A DNA stretch of 64,000 bases from Psammoneis japonica (lineage: Eukaryota). The position numbers and the translations under genes were made by a program. The stretch spans positions 62,001 to 126,000 of the forward strand of contig QPGO01000062.1 in assembly GCA_008632985.1 (NCBI GenBank), written 5' to 3'. The notes under the pieces were generated by a model that was not told where the DNA came from, did no database searches, and was given only the letters and a program-made list of their open reading frames with translations. Shown one piece after another: positions 9,630-41,964 of the stretch. How positions within the stretch are numbered: position 1 is the first letter of the stretch; the number at the start of each line of letters is the position of its first letter.

Positions 9630-9672
9630 CGCAGGCGAATCCTTGCTTCCCTTTGCTGCTGCCTTGTTTGCG

Positions 9673-10901
9673 TCAAACTGTACAACACAACGAGGGTGCC
9701 CCAGCCAGTTCTCCAGGTCTTGTCATTGAAAACCCAATTGGCGGACTGTCGGTGGGCGACAGACGCGGAAATGCAGGGAAGAGACACAACAGACGATGAT
9801 GACCCACCGACAACAGTGGCCTTGGAACATGTGTGTTCTTGACAACGTCAAGGAAAAAGGAGCTTACGCCGTCTGCCAACACAACCCAGATCAGCCGGTC
9901 CCCTTTTCTTCAAACTGTGCAACACAACGAGGGTGCCCCAGCCAGTTCTCCAGGTCTTGTCATTGAAAACCGATTGGCGGAGTGTCACTGGGCAACGGAC
10001 TGGCAGCCCCACTCGTCCGTTGCTGTGCAATTGTCAGCAGTTGACGCGGAGACACAGGGAAGAGACACAACAGACGGAGACGACCCACCGACAACAGTGG
10101 CCTTGGAACACACATGTTCTTGACAATGTCAAGGAAAAAGGAGCTCACCCCGTCTGCCAACACAACCCAGATCAGCCGGTCCCCTTTTCTTCAAACTGTG
10201 CAACACAACGAGGGTGCCCCAGCCAGTTCTCCAGGTCTCATCATTGAAAACCGATTGGCGGAATGTCACTGGGCGACGGACTGGCAGTCCCACTCGTCCG
10301 TTGCTGTGCAATTGTCAGCAGTTGACGCGGAGACACAGGGAAGAGACACAACAGACGGAGACGACCCACCGACAACAGTGGCCTTGGAACATGTGTGTTC
10401 TTGACAATGTCAAGGAAAAAGGAGCTTGCGCTGTCCACCAACACAACCCAGATCAGCCGGTCCCCTTTTCTTCAAACTGTGCAACACAACGAGGGTGCCC
10501 CAGCCAGTTCTCCAGGTCTTGTTGTTGAAAACCGATTAGCGGAACATCACTGGGCGACGGACTGGCAGTCCCACTCGTCCGTTGCTGTGCAATTGTCAGC
10601 AGTTGACGCGGAGATGCAGGGAAGAGATGTGACAGACGGAGACGACCCACCGACAACAGTGGCCTTGGAATGCACATGTTCTTGACAATGTCAAGGAAAA
10701 AAAGCTTGCGCCGTCTGCCAACACAACCCAGATCAGCCGGTCCCCTTTTCTTCAAACTGTGCAACACAACGAGGGTGCCCCAGCCAGTTCTCCAGGTCTC
10801 ATCATTGAAAACTGATTGGCAGAACATCGCTGGGCAACGGACTGGCAGTCCCACTCGTCCGTTGCTGTGCAATTGTCAGCAGTTGACGCGGAGATGCAGG
10901 G
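9673..10901. repeat. 281-bp tandem repeat, ~4.4 copies (first copy has an internal deletion)
   Basis: tcaaactgt(a/g)caacacaacgagggtgcccc at ~9673, 9910, 10191, 10472, 10752; ggaa....gttc at 9824, 10105, 10386, 10667. Confidence 0.95.
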
Positions 10902-21840: not shown

Positions 21841-22053
21841 CCGCGTGCAATCTTCACAATCAAAGACAAACAATTTCAGTCGGCAATCGCTTCGTCGTGT
21901 TGAAGAAACCTGTCCGTTGGCACATCAACTCGTCAACTCGGCACGCTGAGACAGCATTGGACAAGATGCTGGACTTTTGCCGTTGTCTCTGTCCCTCAAA
22001 CTGTTTCCATGTCATGCAAATTGTTTGTCATGACATCGTGAGATTGGCCCACC

Positions 22054-25000
22054 ACTTGGGATGCAACAACACACTGTGTAGGATGGAGAGTTCAGGACTC
22101 TCTTGAGGTTGTGCAATGCAACAGAGGATGGCAAGAAGTGGGTTTGGGACAATGAGATGCGCCAAAGATACGAATTGTGAGAAGATCTCACGAGGGATTG
22201 GAGATGACATTATGACCCAACGGTCGTGTGTGTCACTCCGATTGCTGTCGCTAGAAGACTCAACGGACATTTCTTCCGGAAGAAGAGATCCATGACCGGG
22301 AGCGTCATCCGTGAATCAGACTCGGTTGTTGACTCGTGACTCTCCCTCTCAACCGAAAAGAGAAGGAGAACTGTCAGTCACCAGCCCATGAGGGCTTTGC
22401 GACCAGTGCGGAATAGATCGACAGTCAATCCTTTAGCAAACTGGTCAGCAAGCTGTGCAGCTGAGCTCACAGGCTCAATTTTGATCTCCAAAGCCTCAAC
22501 TTTAGTACGAAACCAATGGNNNNNNNNNNNNNNNNNNNNNNNNNNNNNNNNNNNNNNNNNNNNNNNNNNNNNNNNNNNNNNNNNNNNNNNNNNNNNNNNN
22601 NNNNNNNNNNNNNNNNNNNNNNNNNNNNNNNNNNNNNNNNNNNNNNNNNNNNNNNNNNNNNNNNNNNNNNNNNNNNNNNNNNNNNNNNNNNNNNNNNNNN
22701 NNNNNNNNNNNNNNNNNNNNNNNNNNNNNNNNNNNNNNNNNNNNNNNNNNNNNNNNNNNNNNNNNNNNNNNNNNNNNNNNNNNNNNNNNNNNNNNNNNNN
22801 NNNNNNNNNNNNNNNNNNNNNNNNNNNNNNNNNNNNNNNNNNNNNNNNNNNNNNNNNNNNNNNNNNNNNNNNNNNNNNNNNNNNNNNNNNNNNNNNNNNN
22901 NNNNNNNNNNNNNNNNNNNNNNNNNNNNNNNNNNNNNNNNNNNNNNNNNNNNNNNNNNNNNNNNNNNNNNNNNNNNNNNNNNNNNNNNNNNNNNNNNNNN
23001 NNNNNNNNNNNNNNNNNNNNNNNNNNNNNNNNNNNNNNNNNNNNNNGTGGGAGGCCTTGGGTGCGTGGGAGAACCGTGCGACTTGATGGGTCGCGCAAGC
23101 AATGTCCGGGCGGCTGTTGGACGCTAGATGCATCAGCATGCCGACCACGGAACGGCAGTCACAAGGCTCTTCGAACGGTGGCCCGTCGGTGTCGCTGCCA
23201 GCAGGAGTGGGCAAGGCAGGAGCAGGTGCGCCGTTGCACTTGGTCATCTGTGCGGTGCGGAGAACTTTCTCAATTAGGCCGGGTTGGGTCAGGAGGAATC
23301 GGCCGTCTTCGAGCTTTTGAATCTTGACACCTGGAAAGTTACTGACTTCGCCTTCATCACGTAGATCAAAGACATGGTGTTGCTCATCGTTGGAAATGCC
23401 CAACTTGGCAATCTCTGCTTCGAAGGCTTGGGCCGATGCGCCAGCGAACACGGTGTCGTCAACATGTGCCACACATGACACACCCTTTTTGAAATAAAGA
23501 CAAGGGTCAATGGCGGATTGAATCCATCCTCTTTCGAGCAATCCGTCCCTCAGCTTTTCACAGAAGCACTTGGGAGACTGGCGTAGGCCGTGTGGGCCTT
23601 TCAATGATTTCAGCACCAGATCGGCGCCCGATTTTGGTTGGAAACCCTTTGGAGGCTCTACATGGACCTTCTCCTTGATGTCAGCTTGGCAGAAGGCTGT
23701 GGCACAGTCCACTTGACGTGCAGTCCAACCTTCCTTGAGCACCGTGGTGAGGAGAAGGCGCATGGACGACCATTGCACTGCCGGCGCGCAGGTCTCGAAA
23801 AAATCGATCCCGTGTTTCTGCAAATCGCCGCGAACGCAACATCGTGCCTTGCACTTCAAGGGCGCACCATCCGGGAGTCGTTTGAGTTTGAAAGCCCATG
23901 TGCCGGGTGGTGCATTCACATCTGCCGTTCTTGGCACCATTTCCCATGCACGTCGGTGGAGCAGCGCGTTGATTTCGATTTTCATGGCCTCAACCCACTC
24001 TTCGGATTCATCGCTGCGCATGGCCTCGTGCAAAGAAGGCATGTCGGGATCTTTTTGCTTTTTAGCAGTTGCATGTACCCTGGGATCGTTGANNNNNNNN
24101 NNNNNNNNNNNNNNNNNNNNNNNNNNNNNNNNNNNNNNNNNNNNNNNNNNNNNNNNNNNNNNNNNNNNNNNNNNNNNNNNNNNNNNNNNNNNNNNNNNNN
24201 NNNNNNNNNNNNNNNNNNNNNNNNNNNNNNNNNNNNNNNNNNGACTTGAGCGACGTAAGGGTGTGACGTGGATGTCGCGAAGACGATGTCGGGGCACAGC
24301 AGTCCCGGTAAAAATGTCCGCGGGGCAGCAGCCTTGAGCGTTGGGAGTCACGTTATAAATGTGCGCGGCCACAGGCCATAAAGAGCTGTCTGTGCCCCCC
24401 TTCCAACGGATGGATGCGTGGAGGAGCATCGCTCTCGCCATGTTGGAGACGGAGCGAATGCCGCGTTCTGCGACGCCGTTCTGATGGTGGGCGTTGGTTC
24501 CACAAAAACGTAGACGTTGTTCGTGCTGTCGCATGTGTTGCACAAAAGCACTGGCCTTGAAAGCGCCAGAATCGGCAAGAAATTCTTGGATGATGACTCC
24601 GTGGTCCATCGCGTGCTTCTCAAACGCTTGCTTCGCTCGCACCGTTTCCACAGCAGAGAAACCAAGTTGGTGTTCAACATGTGGGTAACCGGAGGCATGA
24701 TCCACAAAAATGCAGCCTCCTTTGTATTGCTGGGACGAGGCCTTCCCGCAGGAGTCGTAGGTTCGGCCGAGGAGACGGGATTCGAAGTGATCCACGCTGA
24801 CGGCTTGGCCTGGACGTAGATGCTCGGCTCGAAGAGCACCCTCACGCTCTGGAGTAGCCGCATGTTTGGCAGACTTGAGGGTTCGGCGATGTCCTTTGGC
24901 ATGTTCGCACACCTCGCACCGCGGAATGTCGCAACGCGAAGCATGCTTGAATTTGGGTCGGAGAAAAGGTTCGGCCCGAAGCAGGCCTTGGATGCGTGGC

Positions 25001-28000
25001 ATGTTCAGGTGACCAAACCTGAAGTGCCATTCTTGAAGGAGCTTCTGACCGGTGGTGAGGTTCTGGTTGTCCTCGTGCAACACAGACAGATTGACTTGAG
25101 GAGCGGGTGCCACCCCGTTGGTCACAGACGCAACCGGCAAGTGATTTGACGCGTGCGCGACCTTGAGCGAACCGACGCCATCAACATGCACGCGAAATGA
25201 GTCCTCGTCTCCCTCACATTTTCCTGTCACGCCATGTTCCTTGCTGCAGAGGCGTTGTGGGGATAGAAGACGCTGTCCGGCCTGAGGTGCATGGTGCGCC
25301 ATCGTCTTGACGACGAGCTCAGAGCCGTCCTCGTCATGGAAAACCCAGGAGACGGGTCCGATGCCGGCGATGGTTAAGCCATTTGCTAGACCCCGAAGCT
25401 TCAATGGGCCATCAGGGATCGTCAGAGGTCCGACAAAGTCATTTTCATCGTGAGCAATGGCCAAGGATGCGCCAGTGTCGCACATGACGGTGTGGCGCTC
25501 ATGTGCCAGGCTCAGCAAAGCTTGCGGGTCGGCGGCGAGTTGTGCTAAAGAACGTTGGCCCGTCAATGCCTGCACAGAGGTATGAGTAGGACAGGCTTCG
25601 GTTCCGTCAGTAGCTGCCTGGAGAAGCTTCACAGGGTCTTGCCATGGAGTGGTGTCCACGAAACCAAACTTGGTGGACAGCTCGTCGAAACGAAAATAGT
25701 CCGGAGAGAGCTCCTCAACCGCATCAAAGTAGTGGCTCGGCTCGGTCGGGAGCGGGCCGAGGGCTTCCTCTGAATCACAGGTGTCGAAGTGGGACTCGAG
25801 GTCTTCTAGAGCTGGAGGGACACAGCGGCCTGGGGAAGAGCATGCGTCGTTCTCCCAGAGCTGCGTGAATTTCTTGCTCAGACAATGGTCCGGATCGTGC
25901 TCCACAAATTCGGCAAGCACTTGTCGCGCCTTGATCTTGTTGTGTTCCACCAAACTGCCCGGATCTAACACTATCTTATCGTCTGGTTCTTCAATGATCG
26001 AGCAGACCTGAGAGCTGGCTTTGGAGAAGCGAGAAGGGACATTGGAGAATGGATGCGTGGGAAGCTGACCGTTGAAAACAGACGCCCAGACCATGATAGC
26101 TCCAGTCAGCACCATCCAGGTAGAGGGGAAACCGTGAATGGTTGGGATGAATGCCTTGCGGCGCACACGACGAGGTAAGACAGGAATCGGCGCACAGCAA
26201 ATGTGTTGCACCGTTTCCCAGAACATGGCAAACAGCCAGAAAACTCGGAGCTTCAAGAAGTTCCAGAAAAGCTCAAGACGAGAGCTCGGCGTTGCCTCCT
26301 CGACGCTGCAATCAACATCTTGGGGTTCGGGATCGTAAAATTCGAAACCGCGACACTGGGTGCTTGGAGGCAAGTGCTCGTAGCTGTCTTCGAAAGGTAG
26401 GATGCTTGCCCCGGAAACGAGATCGTCTAACACATCGTCGGACAGACCTTCCACGTGAGTTGCGATCGTGTCATAAAACACGTCCGGATTTTGAATCTCG
26501 TGCATGGCACAGGCCGGAAATAGCTCGATAGCTGACGGCAGGGAGTCAAAAGAGGAGTGAGCGTCGGAGCACTCGGAGTGATCGTCAGCATCTTCGGGGT
26601 CAACCGTTTCAACCAAGATGGGAGCGGGTTTGGCCACGGTAGTCTCCCTCTCGGCCGATGGAGCAGGAGTGAACGAGACGGTCGCAGTCACTGGAGTCGA
26701 ACTCAAAGAGTCGTCCACAGGTGCACACCACATGCCGCAACAAACCAGCTCGTTAGGGTCAGAGGGGTCGGCTGCAGGCGGAGACGTCGTCTGCTCGGGA
26801 GGACCAAAAGGAATGCCCGAAGAGGGGTCCGACACAGCAGATAAATTTGCCGCAGCGGTGGTTTCGGTGTTGACAGACGGTTTCCCGGTGTGTTGAGCGG
26901 AGGAGTGGCCTTGACACATGCCCTTCTTGCCCGTTTCCTTGTTCACACACTTGTCGCACCAGTGCCAGGTCGTGCCTTTCTCGTCGGTGACAGTGGCACC
27001 TTTGTGAACGAAACGCCAGGCCGGCTTGGGTGGTTTCTTGGAAGGGTCAGTCTTCCGGACATCCGGAGGGTCATCCTTGGACTCGTCCGCCGTGCCCTTT
27101 TTGTCCTTCTTGTGGTGCTCCTTGCAGGTGGGACACGTGCGTTTGGTGCACCCAACCTTGCCACAGCCGCAGCAATGCTTTTCCGAGTTGTCCTTGGCGA
27201 GGTTGGATTCCGGGAGCTTGGCTGCTGAGGCAGGCCAATCTTCATCGCTAATGAGTTCGCCATGGGTCTTGGTGATCCAGCCAACAAGGCCAACAGGTCC
27301 AAGATCCGCACAGCCGGCATCCTTGGGGACTTCCGCCGGGTCACGCAAGCAACATTTGCGCTCCAAGCGCTTGACGGAGTCGAGCTTGGCAAAAACTTGA
27401 CGATTGAAAAACTCGGAGGATGTCTTTGACACCTCAGATAAAACAGCAGACCCAGTTTCAACTGGCAACGCATGGTCCGTCTGCATGATCTTGAGCAGGC
27501 GCAGAGCTTCGGTTGCAAGCTCGGTGCAGTCTTCGCCAGGGCAGTCATCCAGAGTTAAATCGTTCAACTTTTCCTTGGCGGCCTTGACGTCAACCAGAGC
27601 ACTGGCGTTGCAGGTGTCCAGAGCCATCATAAATGAGACAGACCCCGGAAGATCCTTGCAGTTCTTCAAGTGATTAAACTTGGTTTCAATCTTTTCACGG
27701 AAGGTTTCGGTGATGCGCGACTTGACGATGAGTTGTGATGAGCCGATGTCATCGATTTCACACTGATCGTAGCCTTCGTCACCTGCAGCCGCCACACGGG
27801 TCTCACATTCCTTCTCAAGGTCTTTGACAGTGAAGGCGTGAAGATGATCAAAAAGGTGCACGACCTTGCCGTCGACTTTCTTGAGATGGTAGAAAGTTTC
27901 TTGTCCGTGCGACTCGATTGAGTCCTGAATGGTCTTGACGAAGTGGTCTTTGTCCAGTTCAGCACTGGAACCGTTGGACAACTCAATCTGGCCGTTGAAC

Positions 28001-28736
28001 TTGGATGTGGTGGCCGAAGCGAGTTGATCTCTGAGAGATCGCTCGATAGAGTCGACAGCTTTTGGATGGCGACGTTGCGAGGCAAAACGGCAGGTGCGGG
28101 TGTCGGTCTGCTCGCACTTGTTGTTCAGAGCCGAACCACCCAGATGCACTCCATGAGAGTGGTGGACACCGCCGCGAAGCGGCGTGGGGATCGCAGGAGG
28201 GTTGGTCGAGGTTTGCATCTTGGCGAAGGCCTCAGCAAACATCTTGACGGTGTCAGGATCCATGGACATGGTCATGGATGATTCGACATAGAGGATCGAT
28301 TAGCAGGCAGGGATTGCGACATGGATGATCGCCGTTGGATTGCGACACAGAAGATCGCCGTTGGACAGGATGTCGTCTGTAACGAGACGAACGAGTGGCA
28401 GCAACTCCGTCACGAGTTGATGCCGGTGCGTGGATTGGGGTCGTAACCACTTGGGATGCAACAATGCACTGTGTAGGATGGAGAGTTCAGGACTCTCTTG
28501 AGGTTGTACAATGCAACAGAGGATGGCAAGAAGCAGGTTTGGGACAATGAGATGCGCTAAAGATGCGAGTTGTGAGAAGATCTCACGAGGGATTGGAGAT
28601 GACATTGTGACCCAACGGTCGTGTGTGTCACTCCGATTGCTGTTGCTAGAAGACTCAACGGACATTTCTTCCGGAAGAAGAGATCCATGACCGGGAGCGT
28701 CATCCGTGAATCAGACTCGGTTGTTGACTCGTGACT
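22054..28736 (-). mobile_element. Full-length Ty1/Copia LTR retrotransposon (~6.7 kb)
   Basis: 288-bp LTRs at 22054-22341 and 28449-28736; 5-bp TSD CCACC at 22049-22053 and 28737-28741; PPT GAGAGGGAG (minus strand, 22342-22350); PBS-like GGTTACGACCCCA (minus strand, 28436-28448); single gag-pol ORF. Confidence 0.95.
22378..28275 (-). CDS. Copia gag-pol polyprotein (gag Zn knuckle, protease, integrase, RT, RNase H), hypermutated; two assembly gaps
   Basis: CCGCGKVGCTKRTC knuckle; CDTGAS protease; WHFRFGH..CEVC integrase Zn finger; VSVD / FLADSG / HQNGVAER integrase core; RT KARCCVRGDLQ and VAHVDD (from YVDD); QLADQFAKGL RNase H end. N runs at 22520-23046 and 24093-24242. Confidence 0.93.
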   Translation of the reverse strand: MTMSMDPDTVKMFAEAFAKMQTSTNPPAIPTPLRGGVHHSHGVHLGGSALNNKCEQTDTRTCRFASQRRHPKAVDSIERSLRDQLASATTSKFNGQIELSNGSSAELDKDHFVKTIQDSIESHGQETFYHLKKVDGKVVHLFDHLHAFTVKDLEKECETRVAAAGDEGYDQCEIDDIGSSQLIVKSRITETFREKIETKFNHLKNCKDLPGSVSFMMALDTCNASALVDVKAAKEKLNDLTLDDCPGEDCTELATEALRLLKIMQTDHALPVETGSAVLSEVSKTSSEFFNRQVFAKLDSVKRLERKCCLRDPAEVPKDAGCADLGPVGLVGWITKTHGELISDEDWPASAAKLPESNLAKDNSEKHCCGCGKVGCTKRTCPTCKEHHKKDKKGTADESKDDPPDVRKTDPSKKPPKPAWRFVHKGATVTDEKGTTWHWCDKCVNKETGKKGMCQGHSSAQHTGKPSVNTETTAAANLSAVSDPSSGIPFGPPEQTTSPPAADPSDPNELVCCGMWCAPVDDSLSSTPVTATVSFTPAPSAERETTVAKPAPILVETVDPEDADDHSECSDAHSSFDSLPSAIELFPACAMHEIQNPDVFYDTIATHVEGLSDDVLDDLVSGASILPFEDSYEHLPPSTQCRGFEFYDPEPQDVDCSVEEATPSSRLELFWNFLKLRVFWLFAMFWETVQHICCAPIPVLPRRVRRKAFIPTIHGFPSTWMVLTGAIMVWASVFNGQLPTHPFSNVPSRFSKASSQVCSIIEEPDDKIVLDPGSLVEHNKIKARQVLAEFVEHDPDHCLSKKFTQLWENDACSSPGRCVPPALEDLESHFDTCDSEEALGPLPTEPSHYFDAVEELSPDYFRFDELSTKFGFVDTTPWQDPVKLLQAATDGTEACPTHTSVQALTGQRSLAQLAADPQALLSLAHERHTVMCDTGASLAIAHDENDFVGPLTIPDGPLKLRGLANGLTIAGIGPVSWVFHDEDGSELVVKTMAHHAPQAGQRLLSPQRLCSKEHGVTGKCEGDEDSFRVHVDGVGSLKVAHASNHLPVASVTNGVAPAPQVNLSVLHEDNQNLTTGQKLLQEWHFRFGHLNMPRIQGLLRAEPFLRPKFKHASRCDIPRCEVCEHAKGHRRTLKSAKHAATPEREGALRAEHLRPGQAVSVDHFESRLLGRTYDSCGKASSQQYKGGCIFVDHASGYPHVEHQLGFSAVETVRAKQAFEKHAMDHGVIIQEFLADSGAFKASAFVQHMRQHEQRLRFCGTNAHHQNGVAERGIRSVSNMARAMLLHASIRWKGGTDSSLWPVAAHIYNVTPNAQGCCPADIFTGTAVPRHRLRDIHVTPLRRSSXXXXXXXXXXXXXXXXXXXXXXXXXXXXXXXXXXXXXXXXXXXXXXXXXXXNDPRVHATAKKQKDPDMPSLHEAMRSDESEEWVEAMKIEINALLHRRAWEMVPRTADVNAPPGTWAFKLKRLPDGAPLKCKARCCVRGDLQKHGIDFFETCAPAVQWSSMRLLLTTVLKEGWTARQVDCATAFCQADIKEKVHVEPPKGFQPKSGADLVLKSLKGPHGLRQSPKCFCEKLRDGLLERGWIQSAIDPCLYFKKGVSCVAHVDDTVFAGASAQAFEAEIAKLGISNDEQHHVFDLRDEGEVSNFPGVKIQKLEDGRFLLTQPGLIEKVLRTAQMTKCNGAPAPALPTPAGSDTDGPPFEEPCDCRSVVGMLMHLASNSRPDIACATHQVARFSHAPKASHXXXXXXXXXXXXXXXXXXXXXXXXXXXXXXXXXXXXXXXXXXXXXXXXXXXXXXXXXXXXXXXXXXXXXXXXXXXXXXXXXXXXXXXXXXXXXXXXXXXXXXXXXXXXXXXXXXXXXXXXXXXXXXXXXXXXXXXXXXXXXXXXXXXXXXXXXXXXXXXXXXXXXXXXXXXXXXXXHWFRTKVEALEIKIEPVSSAAQLADQFAKGLTVDLFRTGRKALMGW

Positions 28737-29318
28737 CCACCTGCCCACCAGAGACGAAGGATGAGAAATGGCAAAGCCGAGCAAGCTGGCTGGCCACGGC
28801 TGGCATCGACACATCTGGCTTCACCCAGCAACTTGTGCAAGGCAGCAACTTCAATGCAAGTCATGGAAATCTTGACACTTCTCCAAAGTTTTTTCTGAGC
28901 AGCACACTCGACAAAGAGCCACAAAGGGGCTTTGCACCCAAAAGCCCCCATCCCTTGGTGTCCTGGCTGCTGAGAGCTGCTTTTGGCATCACAGCCACCC
29001 ACTCAGATGGTTGAAAAACTTTGGCTCAACAATTTTTCTTTTCATTTTGCAAAATTTGCAGTTCTTCTGAGCTGGCAAGGGGGGCGGCATCAGTGCATGA
29101 GGAACATGAGCACTAAACCAACGCGATCTTCTGCCACACAGACAAGGCAGGTATCTTTGCCGCGCGCATCGGACTGTGTACGGTACGTGAGGTCTCGTAC
29201 AAATTCTACGGAGAGTTGACTTACGTGTTATTGGTTATTGGGACGCAAAATCTTTTGCTTTCCGCATTGACACCACCGTTGAAGAACAAAAATGATGGGC
29301 AGGCCGTTTTCAACAAGA

Positions 29319-31714
29319 ATGGTAGCAAAATTCCAATTCTTCCTGGCCTTGTTTGGCGCTGGACGCGTTCATGGCTTTTCCATTCTTACCCAGATCCAAA
29401 ACCGCCATGTTGTAAAAGCTCGTTTGCATCCCTTGTACATGGCTGCAAGTAAGAATGCTCCGAGTGTCGATGATCCGAGGTGAGTGAGCAAAAGATGAGA
29501 TTTGAACATGAAGATGCGTTTTAGATTATTGTTTCTAATCTTATCTGATCTGTATGATAACACAGAGACATTCGAAATGTTGCCTTTGTGGGTCACTCGC
29601 ACTCTGGAAAGACCTCTTTGGCTGAATGGATGCTCTTCGATGAAAATGTGATTACCCAGAAACCATCCAACGGCCAATCAACGCTAGACAGTGATCCAGT
29701 CGAGAGCGCCAGGCATTCATCCGTGTTTTCTCATTTTGTGCGGATTCCTCATCGTAACAGTCTGCTGGAGATTTCAGACACTCCCTGGGGTGACTTTCCA
29801 ACAGACGCTCTTGCGGCTTGTGACGGCGCAGATTCAGCCGTAGTCATGGTTTCTGCCGCAGACGGAGTCCAGTCTGGAACCATTCACGCCCACGAGCACT
29901 GTCAAGATGCAGGCATTCGAACGCTTATTGCCCTTACCAAAATGGATCGGCCGTTTGTTCAAGCTCAAGAGGTTCTCGATGATATCGAGGCTAGCCTTGG
30001 AATGAAGCCAGTGCCTCTCCAAGTTCCTCTGGGCGAGGGAGAAGGCTTTCAAGGAGTTGAGCCCTTGTTTGTATTGGATGAGGATGGAAATCTTCAGAAA
30101 AGTGATGCAGATGGCCTTGAAGACGCTTGGATGAATCTGGAAGAAGCTGTCGCCATGACCGACGATGATCTCTTGATTGAATACCTTGACAAAGGCGATC
30201 TCCAACCTTCTCAAGTCTTTGATGGACTCCGCAGAGCAGTCATTCAGAACAAGATCTTACCCCTTGTGTACACATCTGCTGAACGAGATTTGGGTGTATT
30301 GGAGCTAATGGATGCCATGGTCGCCGTTCTGCCTGATCCCATGCAGGTGAGAGAGGAAGCCCTGAGGGTTGCTTGCGAGAATGACGAGGGCCGATGCGGA
30401 GTCGAGCCGGGCGTGGAAGCCGGCTTTGCAGCAAGGGTTCTGCACACCGCTATTGACTCTTTTGGCAGCCTTTCCGTTCTTCGAGTAGTATCGAACAGCC
30501 GCAACGAAAAGGAAGGCACGTTTGACTCTCTCCCTTCTGAAGCGGTCAACCTACGCACCGGCGAAAAGATCAAGGTGCCGTCGGCTTCAGCCTCCTTTGG
30601 TCTCTGCGGCAAGGAGCGCCTTGCACTGGAGGCTGGAGGGCAGATTCTTCCTGGTGATGTTATTGCTGTACCAAAACTATCCGAGAGCGTCAGAACCAAC
30701 GATGTCATTGTCGTACCATCGGCAGAAGCTGATGAACAAGATGAAATCGTCATTGAGAGCTCCACCCATACGCTGACTCCCCTAAGCAGACCTGTCGAAG
30801 ATGTTCCGCTCATGGCATCTGCAACTGTATCGCTCGCTTCAAGTGGCGGGGGCGGGGGCAAGAAGAAAGGCAAATCTAGTGCGAGTGATGACAAGCTCAG
30901 TACAGCTCTTGCCGCCATGGCCCGCGAGGACCTTGCTCTGCAGGTAGAGCAGGATGCAGCATCAGGCAAGCTACTAGTACGTTGCATGTCTGCGGATCAT
31001 CTTTCGCTTGTTGCAGCGCGCCTTGAGAATCGTTATGGTATTAAAGTTGAGTTGGGAAAACCGCCTGTCCAGTATCGAGAGACGTTGATTAAGGCAGTCC
31101 ACAACGTCGAAGGCAAGCATAGGAAGCAGTCCGGAGGATCTGGTCAATTTGGTGTGTGCTATATCAGTATGGAGCCACTTGAGGAAGGAGCTGGTATCGA
31201 GTTTGAGTCGCGCATCAAGGGAGGCGCAATCTCGAAACCCTTTATTTCCTCCGTGGAAAAGGGAGTTCGCGCAGAGCTTGAATCAGGTGGGCCAATGGGG
31301 TTCCCAGTCGCCGATGTGCGTGTTACTCTTACCGACGGAAAGATGCATTCAGTGGATTCCAAAGACATCGCCTTCCAGTCAGCAGGAAAACAGGCCGTCA
31401 AAGCGGCGCTTCAAAAGGGCAAAACTCGTCTACTCCAGCCCATGGAGAAGGTGACTTTTGTCGTTGACGAAAATCTGCAAGGTGAAATCAGTAGCATTGT
31501 GTCTCGCAAAGACGGATATGTTACACTATCTACATCCAGCAACGACCACATGGCAGAGATTGAAGCTATTCTTCCTACCGCCTGTATTGCTGAAGTATCG
31601 GAAGTACTGCGGGCTGAGAGTGCAGGAGAAGGTCAATACACGTCTGAATTCTCGCACTACCAGCCAGTGCCTGAGACCCTGGTGAAAGAAATCACCACGA
31701 ACCTCGAGCCTTGA
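29319..31714 (+). CDS. Elongation factor G-like protein (divergent, EF-G2-like), predicted plastid-targeted; exons 29319-29479 and 29566-31714
   Basis: Spliced N-terminus MVAKFQFFLALFGAGRVHG|F... (signal peptide, Phe, transit peptide), then DIRNVAFVGHSHSGKTSL. Later motifs PPVQYRET, EGKHRKQSGGSGQFG, DGKMHSVDSKDIAFQ, LLQPMEKV, EFSHYQPVP. GT-AG intron 29480-29565. Confidence 0.88.
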
Positions 31715-32422
31715 ATCTTCATTGTATGATAAGCTGTGCTACGCATCCCGTCCATGCGCATCCTGTTTGATCACTGACTGATGTATACCAGGCATAGAAT
31801 AACGATGATTGTCGCGTTCTAACTGAAGCAAAATTAATGTTAGTGGTTTCCCACGTTTTACTTCTGCCCTCGAACTGCTCACTAACGCGTTTTGCAAACC
31901 TCCGATGTTTCACGTCAGCTGTAGAAGCTCGAGCTGATGTAGCACTGTTAGACTGTTATAGTGACTTCCAGGTCTTTTGCTCTGTTCTTTTGTTCTCGTT
32001 TTTTTTTTTTGGTTTTTGGGCACAAAAGCGAGAGCGAGGAGGGGAGGGGTGACCTGGGATGTCGGTGAAGGCAGAAAAAGGAAAAGGGCGTAAGACATGC
32101 GTGACTGCAGTTTCGTCTCAGGCCATTACTATCAGCATAGACAGTCTTTTGTTTAAGCCTCAATCTTGTTTAGTAGGCCTATCGTTAAATAATTCAATGC
32201 GGTTTTCTTTTCAAAGACATATTAAATGGCCTAGTTTGTGTCAATTCATGGAGTCACTCCCGAAAGCTACGAGCGACTCAAATCAGAATCCCAATCGAGG
32301 TTCGAGATTGTAGTTCTTTTTCAGGTTGCTCCTACCAAAAAGCTGTTTATGAACACAAAACTGCTGTACGTTTCAGCACAAAGTACAATACAAAGATATC
32401 GCAACGACAAACAAGAAAAAGA

Positions 32423-32985
32423 ATGGATCTAGACACATCAACATCCTCCTCCGATGCGTTGATTGCGCTCCGTGTGTTCTTCAACATGTACGAGAATGAT
32501 GGTAAGGAGGAAGCAATTTGCTCGCAGGAATCAACTGATTTTGACGCCCGACTCACTCAGCTATTTGGGCTTCTTCTTGCGCAAAAGGATACATTTCATT
32601 TAATGACATGCAAGAGACAATGGAAAGATTGGGGTATCCTTCATCAGCGTTATCGGATATCGAGAGCGCAATGAAGCTTCTTGGATATCCTCCCTACGGC
32701 TTCACATTCTTCAATTTCGTGGGAATTGTATGTTATGTCAATAGCTTCAACAACCCAAAGAATCACCAGGACGCAGAAACCAATCTGAGAGACGTCTTTA
32801 GAGTGTTTTGTAGTGATTTCAATGGCTCTGTTTGTAGAAAAGAACTACAGAGCAATCTTGCGCAAATTGGATACGAAGTACAAGGCGAAGATTTGGAGTT
32901 ACTCGTCAAATCGACAAACGTCGCGCCGCGAGAAGAACTTGACTTCGAAACATTCAAACTCCTCACGAGCTCCATCAAGACCTAA
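32423..32985 (+). CDS. Calmodulin-like EF-hand protein; exons 32423-32501 and 32588-32985
   Basis: Splicing restores YEND-GYISFNDMQETMERLG; later LRDVFRVFCSDFNGSVCRKEL and LDFETF. Confidence 0.7.
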
Positions 32986-33212
32986 GAGAAACGACGTTGG
33001 CGTGATATTTGAAAACAAATCACTTTTCTACATGACATGCATATACCGTCCTTATATACATACAATAACGAAACAGCGCGTAGTCGATTCGACGTGGCTG
33101 AGATGAAAACCTAGATGACATTGCATAAATACTATTACAAAAGATCGTCGTAGACAAGAATAGCATCCTCACCCGTATGCGCATAGTCTATTTTTTGTAT
33201 TTCTGTCCTCGT

Positions 33213-36200
33213 TCAGAGATCGTTGTCGATTTCTGATGGCTTCAGCATTCCCGGCACAGCACTTCGCTCTGCGTGAAGGGCCTGTGCTCTTTCCCTGGCT
33301 TCCCGTTCTGCTTCTTCGCTGAACAACCCGGAGTTATCCTCAACACTAAACTCCTTTAGCTGAATCAAAAAGTCTCGCAAGTGCGTCTTGAACGTTGGAA
33401 GATCCATCTTCAGATCAAACATGCCCTCAACGAAAGTGGCAACCTGCGTGCGGGTCAGGTTAGGAAAGCTCGTAATCAGCATGTTCGAGATATGATCCCT
33501 AAGAAAAGTTGGATTGTTTTGACCGGCTGGCGCAGTGGCCGGATCAAATAGCGGCACAGTTACTTGGTTCAATTGTACCAAGTGAACCATGTGCCGAAGA
33601 AGCGTCGCATGCATCTTGAACCCAGACTTGTGCAGGCGGTCAGTCATTACGGCAAACACATCTTGGATAAGAGAAAGAAGAAACTGTTGATAGAATCCTT
33701 GTGCGACGTTTGGTGTACGTCCGACATTCTGCAACAACTCGTAAAGAATATCAAGCCCCTGACAAATAGAAAAACGAAGGTTGAGACATAATTGCTGCGG
33801 CCAATCACGAGACCGCAACTTCATACGTCACTTACCGTATCTGCTATGTTCCGTTCCGTATGCTTCATCGCCCACACCACGGAATCCACAACCAGTTTCT
33901 GGTGTTCGGGTGGGATATTGAAAAGCGCGGGGAACGCGTGAGAATTGATCGCCTTGAGAAACTCAAAGAAGCGAATTCGATGTTCTGGGTAGTCTTCAAA
34001 GTTGGTCGTGATCATTTGAAGCGTGCACTCAAATACGGCTTCCATTATTCTTGGCACGTCATTGACGACATGACTCTTGAGTTTCTCAATTACAGTCGCA
34101 AACAGCGACAAGACCTCAGGATCCCGGGCACCGGCAATGTTTCGTTGGTAGTCTCCGAGGATTGGGTCGAGGACCGGAGGAATGAATCCTTGCGCTACGG
34201 CCTGTGGCTCCGCTTCCGGAGGACCACTCTTGTCAATAAACATTGTCAGCAACCTAAGGACTTCCTTCTTGGCACTTCGCATGGTACGGACCAATGACAT
34301 TTGCGTAGCAATCGCACCCTGCTGCGCTACGGCAGCCGAAATCCGTTCCGAGTACACCTTGTACACATTGAGCATGTCCAAAAAGAATGTCTGAAGCTGA
34401 TTTGTGAATAGGGAACCCACAGCTCGACACACTCGCTTGTTTGTTTTAAGGATTTTGATAATCTCCTTGATCGTATTCGGTTCATAGAGAGACTCGACAT
34501 TTTTGTTGGCAGCGTCCATGATAACCCTCCATGTCCTGTTGGGCATGTCCATCAGCTTGGTGAGAAGCAATGAGCGATCAATCGTCACCGCCTGGCCCTT
34601 ATCACTCAGCATACAACCCACAGCTTCGTAAAATGCCTGAATCTGATGAGGCTCCAAGTCACTAATGATGCTGGGCAGCGAATCCACAAGTTCGCAAATA
34701 AAGGGCACCGACTCGTCCGCTTGCAAAGTGACAAACTTTCGTTTGCACTTGGTGGCAATCTTGAGAAAGGTATCGCACGCCATATCTTGAACACCAGGGT
34801 GGACCTCGTGCATAAATTCAAATAGCTTGTTCACCACGGTCTTGAGGAATTTCCAATGAGCCTTGAGAAACCGCGGGTACTGTCCAACCACATACATGAT
34901 GTTACTGGCAATAACGGCCTTGTTGTCCTTGCCTCGTTTCTGCTCACAGAGCCCCAGTAAATCCTTGATGACCGTCACGAGAAACCTCTTCTCTTCGTCC
35001 TCCGCCATGGCTCCCGAAATCGAACCAATCGCCCAACAAAGAGTGTTCAGATTATTCCATGACCACGCCGATCCGTCCACTTGTTGTGTCAGTTTGGCCA
35101 GCATAATGCTCTCGGTATCGTCGCAATTCAAGTGAGTCAAGTACACAAGCGTGTCTTTCATGGTCTTGTATTGCGCAATCACATCCGTGTCTTTTGTGGT
35201 TTCCCGAACAATATCCCCGTTTTCGTCTTCGACAATCAACACTTCCTCTGGCTTGGCCATACTGGCAATCATGACTTGCCTGACTCCGGTCAAGACGGGG
35301 CCGTACATGAGTTTCCGGCTCGTTCCGTTTGTTGCATTCTTGCTGTCGCCGTTGAGATTCAAGACATTGGAATGTCGCGCATAGTTGTGTTCTGCCTTGT
35401 ACAAGTCCTCCGCCAGCATGTGCCATGCTTCCAAGCAGATTCGAAAGATCTCCGTATCCCGCACTTCGGACACCCGTACCAGATAAAACAATCCCTTCAA
35501 CAGCGCCTGCTGCGATTCCGGTGTCTTTTCCAGAGTAGTCAAATGAGCCTTGTAGAAACCGCTCAGAAACAAGGCCAGTCGCTGGATAAAGATACAGTCC
35601 TGCTCGGATCCGTTTTCAAAGGCCGGTTGGAGATTGGTTTCAGGCGTAAAGATTTGCTCCAATCGTTGCAAAAAGGTCTCGAGTAGCTCGCAAAAGACGG
35701 CATCGTATTTGGGCTCCAAGTCACTCAAATTGCCAATCTCCGTAAGACAATCCAGAGCATCGTTCCGAAAGAGGGGCTCGGGAAAAAACTTGTTCAACAG
35801 TGCGTTTATCAAGCGCGTTTCAAAGATGAAACCTAGCGGTATCCAGGTAAGAAAGCGTTGGAGAGTCTGGAGGGTGACCGTCAACAAACTCGGTCGCTGG
35901 CTGTGTTCCAGTATAAACTCACACAAATGATAAATTTGTGAAAACTCCGAGTTGAGACTCTCCTTCATGCGCTTGACCTTTTCCGTCACCATTTGATCCC
36001 TCGAAAAGTCAAATACTTCTTCGCTCAGCAGCTTGAGAATTTGCATATTGTTCTCGCACAGCACTTCGGATGTTTTAGAGGACCCCACCAAATCTGGAAT
36101 AAAGCTCGGCCAGTTTTGTGGCCATTCCTGTTTCAAAATTTGAACTAGCGTAAGATTGAGTTTTCCAATAAACACCTTTTCCGACTTCATGGTGGCCTCG

Positions 36201-36599
36201 TCTGAAGACATGGCAATGACCTTTCCCACCACATAATTCTTGATCCCATCGCGTTGTTCCTGCGGGAGGATCTTCCATCTGAATAATTGGTATATACAAC
36301 AGCTGTGTCAGGCGTCTATAAAGGCATATGTAGTATGAGTAACTTATATACGAAACATACCTCGTTCGAATCGCATCGTCCAGCACTTGTAAGCCAAAGA
36401 ATCGACTCTGAGGATTCTGAGCATTTTCTAAAATTGCATCCGCTTTCGTCCATACGTCGGGCGATTCTTGCAAAGCCATCAGGGCCTTATTCGCATCTGC
36501 ACGATGGGGAGATGACGGATCATAGGCCGCCGTGACGACCTGATCGAGTAGCGAGACTTCAAACTCCTTGAGGAGCCGCTCCGACATGCTTGCAGTCAT
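33213..36599 (-). CDS. XPO1: Exportin-1 (CRM1); exons 36599-36361, 36278-33836, 33758-33213
   Basis: [107 protein letters not shown] introns restore the frame. Confidence 0.97.
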
Positions 36600-37092
36600 G
36601 ATGAGTTGTTGTTGGTGGTTGTGTACCGAGATCTACGTAGATTCTACACAATCGTGTGAGATGGCGCACCCCGGGAAATCAAATACGCTCTGCTCGACCG
36701 AAGAAAAAGTCGTCACTGAAACAAAATACTATCGTCTCCACGATAACACCCTTACCGTATGCAATACAATCAAGCTATGAGAGAGGAAGAACAGATGGTC
36801 GTTGTTGGTAGAGACAAGGCCCACACGGCACTGCTCAGATCCAATGATCGTTGGTGCATGCTTTGCTTTCGATGTGGCTCTGAAGAGAGAGACATGCCAC
36901 GAGAGTTTGTACTGAAATCTACGTAGAAACATCGATGATCGTTCGGAACGATCAAAATCGTCAACGAATAGATTTTATTATTTGGTTGATTTCTACAAGA
37001 CTTCCTAGTATCTAAAAGCTGTATTTAACATATGCGACATTTGAGAGAACCCTTCCTTTAAATAAAGTTGAGTGCTCTCGTCCTCGTCGTCC

Positions 37093-38328
37093 TCACATTT
37101 TCGCCGCGTCCTCAGCCTTCTTCGCATCACTCGCTGAGTTTAATTGCTTACTCCCAATTATATTTCGCAACTGCATTCGTTCTTGCCAGGCAGGATTTTT
37201 GTTCTTTGCAATTCCTGGTGCAATGGGTCGACGTCCTTGCAGATTCAGATTGCCGATTTCGTTTGCCGAATAATCGTCTCGTCGAATGGCCAAAATGTCG
37301 GTCCAGTAGCCCATTTGGTAGCCATGATTACGTCCTTCTTGACCAGCTTTGGCAAACCACTGACATTGCTCGTATGGATCAGTTGGTCGAAAAAAGTCCG
37401 ACACGTAAGCACGACTTGGTCCGCCTTCGTAATCCCCCTTTGGATGCGACTGAAAAGCCAAGTCAAACAAATCGAAGTTGGCCTTGTGCAAAACTTCCAA
37501 AATATCCTTGACAGAAGAACATGTACCCATTTCCACACCTTTTGCTTGATCCAAAGCATCCACCCAGTATTCCAATAGTACAAATCGTGCCTTTTGCAAA
37601 TGACGCGACAGTCCCTTCAGTACATTTGCTTCTTGGCCTTGGACGTCAATTTTGACAAGATATAGATTGGCATCTTTATTCTTGCCAAACACATCTGTAT
37701 CCAGCACATCATCCAACGCAATAGTCTCTACTTCGGTTGTATCAATATTGTTGTTCCTTCCGGCTTGTTCTCGTTCATCCAAATTAACTCCAACCACATG
37801 ATCACCCGTTCCGCCATTGGTTGAGAACAAAAGCTTGTCTCCAGAGACGTTCGATACGGCCTTGTTGTACAGCGTCATTCGTGCCTTCTGGACATCGGAC
37901 AAGTCTTGATATTGACGCTCCATGCGGTTAAAGTTTTTTGGTGAGGGATCAAAGGAGAGTGTGGAAAATCCCATGAGGCTGGAAAAGGACGATTGAGCCA
38001 ACGAGAAGCAACCAACCTCCAAGACGTAATCATTCTCGGTAGGATGCGGGTGGTTCATTAGAAGAGACTCGAACATGGTATCCGAATCAAGATGTAAATG
38101 ACGAAGAATGGGATGAATAACAAAGTTATCATCCTTTTTCTGTTGGGGAGAGCGCAAGAAGCTCGAAGTAGTTGAGAGCAATCCATCACTCTCCTTGGAT
38201 GATGAGAACATGTAAAACAATAGGCATTGCATCGAAATCACAATGTGAATAAACCCAATCAGCAAAAAGATGAGAAATCTATCTCGACGTGGTGGTGTCG
38301 GTGGCGGTACCCTGAGGAGGCGCACCAT
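37093..38328 (-). CDS. FkbM-family (Methyltransf_21) methyltransferase, type II membrane protein, copy 1
   Basis: N-terminal TM helix; VLEVGC...SFDPSPKN...NKAVS...TIALDD...LVKIDVQGQEANVLKG. Confidence 0.82.
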   Translation of the reverse strand: MVRLLRVPPPTPPRRDRFLIFLLIGFIHIVISMQCLLFYMFSSSKESDGLLSTTSSFLRSPQQKKDDNFVIHPILRHLHLDSDTMFESLLMNHPHPTENDYVLEVGCFSLAQSSFSSLMGFSTLSFDPSPKNFNRMERQYQDLSDVQKARMTLYNKAVSNVSGDKLLFSTNGGTGDHVVGVNLDEREQAGRNNNIDTTEVETIALDDVLDTDVFGKNKDANLYLVKIDVQGQEANVLKGLSRHLQKARFVLLEYWVDALDQAKGVEMGTCSSVKDILEVLHKANFDLFDLAFQSHPKGDYEGGPSRAYVSDFFRPTDPYEQCQWFAKAGQEGRNHGYQMGYWTDILAIRRDDYSANEIGNLNLQGRRPIAPGIAKNKNPAWQERMQLRNIIGSKQLNSASDAKKAEDAAKM

Positions 38329-38545
38329 GGTTGATGATTCAGTAGGTCACAGCCTGTTTTGAGTTGATGCCAGGTTTTTTGTTTGAAAAAATTGTGAGCG
38401 GCCGTTGAGAGTCCAATACGTTTATACAGTCATTTTATGTATCATATTTTTATTGACGTATTAGCTTCTTAAGGTTATTATATCATCGTCCGTTGAGGAC
38501 CAAATCCCTGTTGATCGGTCCTTCACTATTTCGCAACCCCGGGGT

Positions 38546-39715
38546 TCAATGTAATGGTGTGCTCCCGGCTGCATTTCGCAACTGCATTCGTTCTTGCCAT
38601 GCAGGATTTTTGTTCCTCGCAATTCCTGGTCCAACAGGCAAACGTCCTTGCAGATTCAGATTGCCGATTTCGTTTGCCGAATACTCGTCTAGTCGAATTG
38701 CCAAAATGTCGGTCCAATAGCCCATTTGGTACCCATGATTACGTCCTTCTTGACCAGCTTTGACAAACCACTGACAATGCTCGTACGGATCAGTTGGTCG
38801 AAAAAAATCCGACACGTAAGCACGACTTGGTCCGCCTTCGTAATCGCCCTTTGGATGCGACTGAAAAGTCAGGTCAAACAAATCGAAGTTTGCATTGTGC
38901 AAAACTTCCAATATATCCTTGACAGAAGAACATGTACCCATTTCTACACCTTTTGCTTGATCCAAAGCATCCACCCAATACTTTACCAGCACAAATCGTG
39001 CCTTTTGCAAATGACGCGATAGTCCCTTCAGTACATTTGCTTCGTAGCCTTGGACGTCGATTTTCACTAGAAACAGATTGGCGTCTTTGTTTTTTCCAAA
39101 CACATCTTTATCCAGTACATCATCCAACGCAACAGTCTCTACTTCGGTTGTATCGATTTTACTATTTCTGCCCGGTTGTTCTCGTTCATCCAAGTTTACT
39201 CCAACCACATGATCACCGGTTCCGCCATTGGTCGAGAACAAGAGCTTGTCTCCAGATTCATTCGATACAGCCTTGTTATATAGCGTCATTCGTTCCTTTT
39301 GGATATCGGACAGGCTTTGGTATTGACGTTCCATACGATGAAAGTTCTTTGGCGAGGGATCAAAGGAGAGTGTGGAAAATCCCATGAGACTCGATAGAGA
39401 CGATTGAGCCAAGGAGTAGCAACCAACCTCCAAAACATAATCATTCTTTGTAGGATGCGGGTGGTTCATAAGTAGAGTCTCGAACATGGTATCCGAATCA
39501 AGATGTAGGTGACGAAGAATGGGATGAATAACAAAGTTCTCATGTTCTGATTGTTGGTGAGTGCGCAAGATTCTCGACGTAGTCGAGAGCAATCGATCAC
39601 TCTCATTATTAGACGATAATATGATGTAGAAAAAAATACACTGGATCGAAATCACTATGGTAAATGCAATCAGCATAAAGACGAGATAACGATCTTTCCA
39701 GAGGAGGCGCACCAT
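38546..39715 (-). CDS. FkbM-family methyltransferase, tandem duplicate copy 2
   Basis: Highly similar to copy 1; the likely start MVRLLW at 39715 mirrors MVRLLR of copy 1. Confidence 0.82.
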   Translation of the reverse strand: MVRLLWKDRYLVFMLIAFTIVISIQCIFFYIILSSNNESDRLLSTTSRILRTHQQSEHENFVIHPILRHLHLDSDTMFETLLMNHPHPTKNDYVLEVGCYSLAQSSLSSLMGFSTLSFDPSPKNFHRMERQYQSLSDIQKERMTLYNKAVSNESGDKLLFSTNGGTGDHVVGVNLDEREQPGRNSKIDTTEVETVALDDVLDKDVFGKNKDANLFLVKIDVQGYEANVLKGLSRHLQKARFVLVKYWVDALDQAKGVEMGTCSSVKDILEVLHNANFDLFDLTFQSHPKGDYEGGPSRAYVSDFFRPTDPYEHCQWFVKAGQEGRNHGYQMGYWTDILAIRLDEYSANEIGNLNLQGRLPVGPGIARNKNPAWQERMQLRNAAGSTPLH

Positions 39716-40179
39716 GGTGGATACATCGCACTGCAAACTGAAAATTATATGTATACGTACATATTGCAAATGGTCACACGACATTGTCGTAACTGATAGG
39801 ATAACTGTTTTACTTCAAGGGGCTTAATGAAACAATGCTTTGATGACAATGACTCCCCATGTACCAAATACAAAAAGTGTCTCTTTGAGTCTCTGATGAA
39901 GTATTATATGCATGATGTCATCAATATGATAGTTGTGCACGAAAAAGACGAAAACAATCAAAACAAAGAGAAAAAAAGAAACTGTGACACCAAAAATACC
40001 TGGTATTGTAAATGACAAATGAGGAGAAAAACGAGAAACGGAGTCCGGTGAAAAGGCGAAAACGAGGAAACACACCGAACAACGCGAGGAGCGAGGAGCC
40101 GGGACGCTGGAACGAACCAACACGTTGATCGCGTTGTCGGTTGTTATTAGAAAACATTGACTGTTGCCATAGTAGCATT

Positions 40180-40542
40180 ATGAGTGCCGCAACTTCAACT
40201 GCTTCATCTGTAGACACGTTTGATAAGCCCAAACTCGTGCTGCTGAAGCGTCAAAAGCAAACGTTTTGCGTTTCCTATCATTCGTCCGACACGACGGTGG
40301 AGTATCTCAAACAGCAAGTCGAAAAGGCCTTGCAGGATACATGCCGACAAGACACAAGTCAGGTCGTCAAGGTGGATGATATGCTTGTGTACAATCCTCA
40401 GGAAGACAACAAAGTGCTTGAAAACGACTCGGAGCTCCGGGATTTTCGCAACAACCAAGAGTTGTACATTGTCTTTAAGAAGTCGGACAATGAGTGGGAG
40501 TCCATCGACGTGGTACCTACCGTGGATGCCATGGGAGAATGA
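40180..40542 (+). CDS. Elongin-B-like ubiquitin-fold protein
   Basis: LVLLKRQKQTF...TVEYLKQQVEKAL...VLEND...LYIVFKKSDNEWESIDVVP parallels elongin B (FLMIRRHKTTIF...TVFELK...LAFRADDTFEALCIEP). Confidence 0.6.
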   Translation: MSAATSTASSVDTFDKPKLVLLKRQKQTFCVSYHSSDTTVEYLKQQVEKALQDTCRQDTSQVVKVDDMLVYNPQEDNKVLENDSELRDFRNNQELYIVFKKSDNEWESIDVVPTVDAMGE

Positions 40543-40988
40543 TTCGCTCGGTAGTTTCGTCGCTGGTTTGGTGGCTGAAGGAAATTTCAACATTGAAATT
40601 AGAGATGGATTTCTTCTGATTTGGGGAGGCGTGTTAGAAAGAATCTGGTCTAAGTCTACAAGAAAATAGAATCCTCAATCCGTCATTTTGTTTTCTCTAG
40701 AGAAGTTATAAGGGATCAGAGCTATAAAACTTGGATCGAAACCCGAAATTTCCATGACAGAGGAGTAAAGGAATATATCGTTCCAACTTGAACCGCGGAT
40801 AATCTTTTTGTCGTTGGCACCTTTATCGAACAAAAGCAAAAGGATTACTGCAAATTGATGCAACCGAAAAGTCGAATGCCTTTGCGACCTTACATGTAGT
40901 AGCACTGCTTGGTCGAACGTTTGCGTCTTTTAGTGTGTTGCAATCTCATCCAGGCCGTATGAAGCCGAATATTATCAGTTCCATCCTC

Positions 40989-41670: not shown

Positions 41671-41964
41671 GGTGGTCGTTCGAATTTGTGAGCAAACAAG
41701 AGCTCAACACTTTTTTTCTTGTGAAGCAAAAAAGATTCGATTACGTAGTAGGATTCTCGTACAATCAAATCCACGTAGAGATCTTTTATCTCGAGCTCCC
41801 AGATATATATAATATATAATAGCTTGTGCAATATATATTTCTTTATATTAATGAACGAACAATTCATATTTCCAGCCGTTGGAGCGCCGCAAAAAAAGCG
41901 CGAAAACCATTGAGATTTGGGCGATTGCGGCGCAAAAATTGTGCCATCTTCATCTTGTAGCATC

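Follow-up and report, generated by a model that had tools for sequence, protein, structure and literature searches.

The closest described counterpart of the pattern reported here comes from the chlorarachniophyte Bigelowiella natans (bioRxiv 10.64898/2026.01.13.699255, April 2026). According to the text of that preprint, two integrated viral regions of mutation-accumulation (MA) lines acquired 231 mutations, of which 230 were A>G/T>C, every one of these at TpA; the rate was ~1000 times background, in some lines only. The same text describes 124 genomic clusters depleted in TpA and enriched in CpA and TpG, an enrichment of reverse-transcriptase and DDE domains in low-TpA coding sequences, and an ADAT2-like deaminase proposed as the cause; outside its figures and supplements, it makes no mention of diatoms, long terminal repeats (LTRs), retrotransposons or flanking bases. 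Full-text literature searching found no report of TpA-specific hypermutation in diatoms or in any lineage besides B. natans. Here, we analysed 64,000 nucleotides of the diatom Psammoneis japonica (assembly GCA_008632985.1, contig QPGO01000062.1, positions 62,001 to 126,000; hereafter the window), which hold a Ty1/Copia LTR retrotransposon at 22054-28736. The signature of TpA loss, its direction, its strand symmetry, its confinement to domains and its context bias were all established in this window. Taken as a whole, it is likely that this element records a post-insertion, two-strand, domain-limited TpA>TpG/CpA hypermutation of chromosomal DNA.

As reported for B. natans, nearly all changes were A>G/T>C, at TpA, on both strands and at a rate far above background. 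The hallmarks of the Bigelowiella-type process recurred, namely A:T>G:C transitions, a TpA target giving TpG/CpA, and discrete regions with host genes spared. Unlike that rhizarian, the host here is a stramenopile, and the evidence is historical (LTR pair, tandem repeats and Tyr codons) rather than drawn from MA lines. The targets here were an LTR retrotransposon and orphan DNA, those in B. natans integrated viral DNA. Depletion was also deeper, with TA observed/expected (o/e) ratios of 0-0.1 compared to the cluster cut-off of 0.43 and the viral region at 0.45 in the preprint text, and it was biased by the 3' neighbour (T>C>G>A), a feature on which that text is silent.

Three better-known processes share parts of this pattern. 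Fungal repeat-induced point mutation (RIP), too, is a dinucleotide-specific, transition-only hypermutation of chromosomal repeats and foreign DNA that inactivates transposons. However, RIP changes C>T at CpA and thereby makes TpA and stop codons, whereas here TpA and stops were removed and GC was not lowered; the excess of TpA and AT enrichment typical of RIP were absent (TA o/e 0-0.3; GC 46-51% in the large depleted block). Methyl-CpG decay also involves a hypermutable palindromic pyrimidine-purine dinucleotide (YpR) feeding TG/CA, and CpG decay accompanied TA loss in two older blocks, but the substrate here was TA, not CG. Finally, ADAR hyper-editing and APOBEC3 hypermutation disable retroelements through transitions of the deamination type that show a preference for the 5' neighbour. 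Their substrate is RNA or single-stranded cDNA, so that changes are strand-biased and RNA edits are identical in both LTRs, whereas the changes here were symmetric, LTR-specific and extended to non-retroelement DNA.

The orientation of the element was taken from an open reading frame (ORF) at 22378-28275 on the minus strand with Pfam matches to RVT_2 and gag_pre-integrs; therefore 28449-28736 is the 5' LTR and 22054-22341 the 3' LTR. Its parts are as follows.

22049-22053, no strand: left target-site duplication (TSD), CCACC, read from the sequence.
22054-22341, minus strand: 3' LTR, 288 bp, with TA at 22079, 22169, 22211 and 22252.
22342-22350, minus strand: polypurine tract (PPT) GAGAGGGAG (element strand), abutting the 3' LTR on its upstream side, read from the sequence.
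22378-28275, minus strand: Ty1/Copia polyprotein frame, 1965 codons, open across both N runs.
28431-28448, minus strand: primer-binding-site-like stretch GGTTACGACCCCAATCC... (element strand), adjoining the 5' LTR; this putative role is assigned from position alone.
28449-28736, minus strand: 5' LTR, 288 bp, with TA at 28474, 28507, 28558 and 28647.
28737-28741, no strand: right TSD, CCACC, read from the sequence.

A preliminary description of this DNA had reported a matching CCACC TSD and LTRs that differ only by transitions, and both reports held. The two LTRs (288 bp each) aligned without gaps; 8 sites, comprising 10 bases, differed between them, and every difference was a transition. The classes it had distinguished were also recovered: four sites with TA in one LTR and TG or CA in the other, two with CA versus TG, one AA/AG and one CG/TG. 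The differences are given below as 3' LTR/5' LTR, with positions in the 3' LTR unless two ranges are given.

Difference 1: 22070-71 CA, 28465-66 TG.
Difference 2: 22113 G/A, TG/TA.
Difference 3: 22139-40 TG/CA.
Difference 4: 22163 C/T, CA/TA.
Difference 5: 22170 A/G, TA/TG.
Difference 6: 22174 A/G, AA/AG.
Difference 7: 22212 A/G, TA/TG.
Difference 8: 22249 C/T, CG/TG.

TA/TG/CA sites thus held 8 of the 10 differing bases, against a background in which a transition would make or destroy TA at 19.8% of LTR positions (chance P(≥8 of 10) = 7e-5). Two or more adjacent CA<->TG double differences would be expected by chance with P ~1e-3. Each LTR now holds 4 TA compared to 18.4 expected. A model in which each copy loses TA with probability p, TG and CA being equally likely outcomes, was fitted by ~9 ancestral TA sites with 0.56 lost per copy, and implied an ancestral LTR TA o/e of ~0.5, as in the host-gene regions (0.46-0.61, about 0.55). 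The change rate of TA bases was ~110 times that of other bases in the LTR pair (0.41 vs 2/544), a rough figure given only two background changes, and the loss per site was ~15 times greater for TA than for CG (0.56 vs 1 of 28 CpG copies).

The direction of change, which the preliminary description had taken to run from TA, was supported indirectly by the decay of Tyr codons, by TA in other copies of the family, by the improbability of a CpG origin, by related loci that lack the depletion and by nearby tandem repeats that differ mainly at CA-versus-TG sites (see below). Tyr is encoded by TAY. Across 39 conserved Tyr columns of the polyprotein (Tyr in at least 75% of eight aligned homologs), the element retained Y in 5 and carried C in 11, H in 10, F in 5, L in 4, V in 2, S in 1 and W in 1, and the codons at all 21 Tyr->Cys/His columns were TGY (Cys) or CAY (His). 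The converse, conserved Cys/His replaced by Tyr, was found in 0/51 columns compared to 21/39 (Fisher, 4e-10), and conserved columns for other residues were kept in 544/851. Tyr now makes up 0.69% of polyprotein residues, and the reverse transcriptase motif YVDD reads HVDD (codons at 23455-23466). The remaining polyprotein landmarks were DTGAS (amino acid 933), gag_pre-integrs (amino acids 1080-1127) and RVT_2 (amino acids 1443-1688). This order, with the integrase part (gag_pre-integrs) upstream of RVT_2, together with two LTRs, a 5-bp TSD and the PPT, identifies a Ty1/Copia element; the closest named relative of its polyprotein is from Fragilaria. LTR termini are usually 5'-TG...CA-3', whereas those of this element read AGTCAC...CCAAGT on the element strand. 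No alternative boundary within the similar stretch yielded a matching 5-mer.

Further support came from the contigs of a sequencing run compared with the window (run X1), for which 40 of 95 variant rows were listed. Among these 40, 14 rows represented seven CA<->TG double sites, 9 had CA or TG in the window and TA in other contigs, 2 showed the reverse pattern (TA in the window), 9 were CpG-type and 6 were of other kinds. Sites covered by several contigs, at which other copies carry TA and the window CA or TG, were 22218 (inside the LTR), 23162, 25483 and 28323.

The preliminary description had also placed the changes in chromosomal DNA after insertion, and this was supported by the LTR differences themselves and by the same pattern in tandem repeats and flanking DNA. 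In reverse transcription a single U3 and a single U5 give rise to both LTRs, and LTR differences therefore arose in DNA after synthesis. Beyond the LTR, 377 bp of flank were also TA-free. The tandem repeats lie inside the first TA-depleted block (see below):

9762-10885, no strand: four 281-bp tandem copies, non-retroelement.

Among these copies, 12 sites vary among TA, TG and CA, making up 23 of the 39 variable columns; one site reads TA, CA, TG and TG across the four. Adjacent copies differed by 18, 17 and 25 bases, including 4, 7 and 9 CA-versus-TG double sites, with 0 TA and 11-13 CG conserved. These repeats, which never passed via RNA, show the TA-loss pattern at saturation. TA-derived sites 2-3 bp apart were often alike within a copy (CACA/CACA/CACA/TGTG; TGTG/CACA/TGTG/CACA), which hints at short strand-coherent conversion patches, a hint confounded by shared ancestry. 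In a control duplicate from DNA of normal TA content (37162-38275 vs 38573-39686), transversions made up 58 of the 130 differences and only one CA/TG double was present. It falls within two tandemly duplicated FkbM-type methyltransferase genes (37093-38346 and 38546-39814, minus strand) that share 88% DNA identity, with an unremarkable spectrum of substitutions (72 transitions and 58 transversions).

TA loss was not confined to the element. We mapped TA as o/e per 500 bp together with individual TA positions; the o/e was 0.33 over the window as a whole but strongly bimodal, at 0-0.2 in three blocks and ~0.5-0.6 elsewhere.

1-29113, no strand: TA-depleted block 1, containing the element; TA o/e mostly <0.2 per 500 bp, CA/TG ~1.4-1.8.
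43505-45033, no strand: TA-depleted block 2; 5 TA in ~1.5 kb, CG o/e 0.18-0.37, CA/TG 1.5-2.1.
50979-55975, no strand: TA-depleted block 3; 18 TA in ~5 kb, CG o/e 0.11-0.72, CA/TG 1.6-2.2.

Block edges were sharp to ~100 bp or less. At the right edge of block 1 there was no TA between 28647 and 29114, and density was normal from 29114, ~450 bp before the EF-G ORF. All recognisable host genes lay in the normal blocks, including EF-G, CRM1 (ORF 33821-36307, with 84-88% identity to exportins of diatoms), two FkbM methyltransferases, an HA-domain gene and a sugar transporter. The YpR total was constant (0.247 in depleted DNA, 0.239 in the element and 0.239 in normal DNA) and CA/TG rose (to ~2.0) as TA fell; therefore TA, plus CG in the two older blocks, was converted to TG/CA by transitions. 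The GC content of the large depleted block (46-51%) was about equal to that of the host-gene regions. Blocks 2 and 3 were low in both TA (o/e 0-0.16) and CG, whereas CG o/e in the Copia element was near normal (0.8-1.0), which suggests that TA is lost rapidly and that CpG decay follows later, at a slower pace.

One target was the Copia element; the remaining depleted DNA had only weak, unnamed homologs. A Pfam scan of 55 long ORFs from the depleted blocks gave 0 matches above cut-off and one weak match, to Aminotran_3 (17.6 bits vs a cut-off of 30.5), and the edges of the 43.5-45.0 kb block lacked terminal repeats. An ORF of 1162 codons in depleted DNA (6237-9722, minus strand) has weak unnamed homologs over its last ~300 residues (best E 7e-22, 32% identity). 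Against a representative library it gave 21 weak matches, and the 7 of these 21 that were Pfam-scanned showed no family above cut-off; the ORF is perhaps the decayed gene of a mobile element or virus. A tandem array at 56416-63999 (minus strand), built of at least 70 units of 108 bp (36 codons), forms a 2527-codon open frame that runs off the window, with a match to the Pfam PT repeat and a GC skew of ~+0.3 on the plus strand. More of these units, in diverged form (~74% identity), occur at 50141-50751.

The depth of TA loss depended on sequence context. Relative to normal DNA, TA retention was lowest in ATAT (0.02), ATAC/GTAT (0.03), ATAG (0.07) and GTAC (0.10), and highest in TTAA (0.67), CTAA (0.40), GTAA (0.33) and CTAG (0.27). 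Ranked by the base that follows the target A on its 3' side, the preference was therefore T>C>G>A (TAT, TAC > TAG > TAA). The LTRs agreed with this bias: the two TAs that both LTRs kept lay in GTAG and CTAG, and two ATAC and one GTAC were among the sites that had mutated. This 3'-neighbour bias, which favours TAY, would also explain why Tyr codons were hit hardest. The same process altered the supply of stop codons. TAA plus TAG density in six frames was ~12 per kb in depleted DNA (1-22 kb) compared to ~32 per kb in normal DNA (30001-44000), and TGA was unchanged. TA loss erases TAA and TAG and creates no in-frame stop, and dead elements therefore keep long open frames. We accordingly rejected the 'intact' 1965-aa ORF as a mark of youth or function, since it crosses the N runs and TA loss creates no in-frame stops. 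Many long, overlapping ORFs without a family match were present on both strands of depleted positions 1-22000, a trap for gene callers.

Several observations weigh against in-place TA loss as the source of the LTR differences. Two of the 10 differences are not TA-type, and the 40 listed of the 95 variant rows do not cover what the family carries at the eight LTR sites. Run X1 is possibly the source data of the assembly, so its contigs may not be independent of it. Two further runs, X2 and X3, gave no contigs on the element and carry no weight either way. TA loss was also greater in Tyr codons (21/26) than in the LTRs (8/16; Fisher, P = 0.047), which reflects either some loss before insertion or the favoured TAY context. 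The remaining points bear on the assembly. The family is high-copy, with 1149 run X1 contigs on the element and a summed word depth of 1000-4800 compared to ~46-63 on the flank contigs, so that at a depth tens of times that of the flank the printed LTRs could mix copies. Two N runs lie inside the element (22520-23046, 527 bases; 24093-24242, 150 bases), and just one contig among those listed bridges unique flank into an LTR. The N runs may be gaps left by scaffolding through a high-copy repeat, or else sequence that was withheld; the length of the 527-base run is not divisible by three, yet the frame goes on into a plausible Copia C-terminus.

The copy number, the N runs and the frequency of CA<->TG and TA/CA variants among copies are consistent with an assembler that mixed copies into the two LTRs, or with gene conversion of one LTR by another copy, and the pattern would then be among-copy variation. 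We regard such an origin as unlikely. The CCACC TSD matches at both ends, and the listed bridging contig (21900-22083) joins unique flank to the 3' LTR and covers 22070-71 with the letters of the window. Among-copy variation shows the same TA>TG/CA signature with copy-specific directions, so the mutations would still postdate copy separation, and the tandem repeats show the process independently. The bridging contig differs from the window at 22037 (C>T at CpG), which could be an allele or strain difference.

In-place change of integrated DNA must also be set against changes made on the retrotransposition intermediate before integration, by ADAR-like RNA editing or deamination of single-stranded cDNA. 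The target is a retroelement, and A>G at UA recalls the 5' neighbour preference of ADAR (bioRxiv 10.64898/2026.01.13.699255, Discussion). However, RNA edits would be common to both LTRs, which here differ, and the signature extends to tandem repeats, orphan DNA and the 377 bp of flank. Action on both strands, as the preliminary description had proposed, was evident in the balanced counts of inferred TA>TG and TA>CA changes in the LTRs (5 to 3) and of Cys and His in the ORF (11 to 10), and such symmetry is not expected of an edited intermediate. This origin is therefore very improbable. The argument against editing of the intermediate, raised previously, covers RNA and single-stranded cDNA only; a deaminase acting on chromosomal DNA is the leading candidate.

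A reversed or different direction, in which CA/TG became TA as in fungal RIP, or methylated CpG decayed to TG/CA and so made the CA-versus-TG sites, fared no better and is highly improbable. Pairwise LTR comparison by itself does not polarise changes, one LTR site is CG/TG (22249), and CG too is depleted in the older blocks at 43.5-45 kb and 51-56 kb. Against RIP, TA was depleted rather than enriched (o/e 0-0.3); against reversal more generally stand the one-sided exchange of Tyr for Cys/His and a family majority of TA at the four multi-contig sites. A CpG origin of both LTR CA/TG doubles would require two opposite double hits (P = 0.016, given 13 CpG conserved and 1 single hit) in an element whose CG o/e is ~0.8-1.0. 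Related elements did not share the depletion. A protein-guided scan of metagenome contigs recovered 13 related Copia loci (35-66% identity), too distant to polarise the LTR sites, with TA o/e of 0.40-0.90 and none strongly TA-depleted; TA depletion is therefore not a family trait. An exact-pattern scan of the metagenome contigs with a conserved LTR 32-mer, carrying R/Y at TG/CA positions, gave 0 matches. Three of the loci (L006, L010 and L011) had CpG o/e of 0.26-0.37, CA/TG of 1.5-1.7 and only moderately depleted TA (0.40-0.45), which looks like ordinary methyl-CpG decay and not the TA process.

Finally, it is scarcely credible that the letters are not mutations at all, but a modified base at TpA (e.g. 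deoxyinosine or a modified thymine) read as G/C and fixed randomly by the assembler as TG or CA: although reads of a single modified site would give TG from one strand and CA from the other and never CG, which fits the CA<->TG alternatives among contigs, and contigs over the element are highly fragmented, indirect evidence speaks against it, in that the depth points to truly many copies, a TA o/e near 0 would demand near-complete modification, neighbouring sites lacked strand coherence at 100-bp scales (by hand count, 11 runs of Cys/His along the ORF vs 11.5 expected), and the preprint text reports the same changes as heritable in B. natans MA lines (bioRxiv 10.64898/2026.01.13.699255).

Returning to post-insertion hypermutation of chromosomal DNA, the sequence would be as follows. 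A Ty1/Copia element would have inserted with two identical LTRs and roughly normal TA content, and would then have decayed in place as TpA changed to TpG or CpA (an A:T>G:C change of the A in TpA, whichever the strand). The process would act on chromosomal double-stranded DNA, within sharply bounded domains that are silent, repetitive or foreign-looking, at perhaps ~100 times the background substitution rate. By analogy with the proposal for B. natans, adenine deamination in DNA by an ADAT/TadA-like deaminase may serve here as genome defence. To our knowledge, A34 of tRNA is always preceded by U33, which would make such a DNA adenine deaminase an attractive candidate.

What is new here is the host lineage, the class of evidence (LTR pair, tandem repeats and Tyr decay) and the deeper footprint with its 3'-neighbour bias. 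That a much deeper footprint occurs in a second lineage, distant from the first and ecologically dominant, suggests a genome-defence or mutational system that is widespread among eukaryotes. Somewhat short of an even chance, in our judgement, is the bolder possibility that diatoms share with Bigelowiella a domain-targeted, TpA-specific DNA adenine-editing defence. This would be an old 'anti-RIP' system of the SAR (stramenopile, alveolate and rhizarian) supergroup that marks silent or foreign DNA, erasing TA (TAY first) on both strands at ~100-1000 times background and leaving long stop-free frames. If true, LTR pairs would provide a built-in clock for its rate and its onset after insertion.

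Occurrence in a diatom would open the TpA system to genetics. The logic of the LTR pair places the process on integrated DNA, post-insertion, and offers a genome-wide route to date and measure it. For genome annotation, long ORFs in TA-depleted DNA are artefacts of stop-codon erasure, insertion age is overestimated by LTR divergence unless TA sites are masked, and dead elements are flagged by their Tyr>Cys/His changes.

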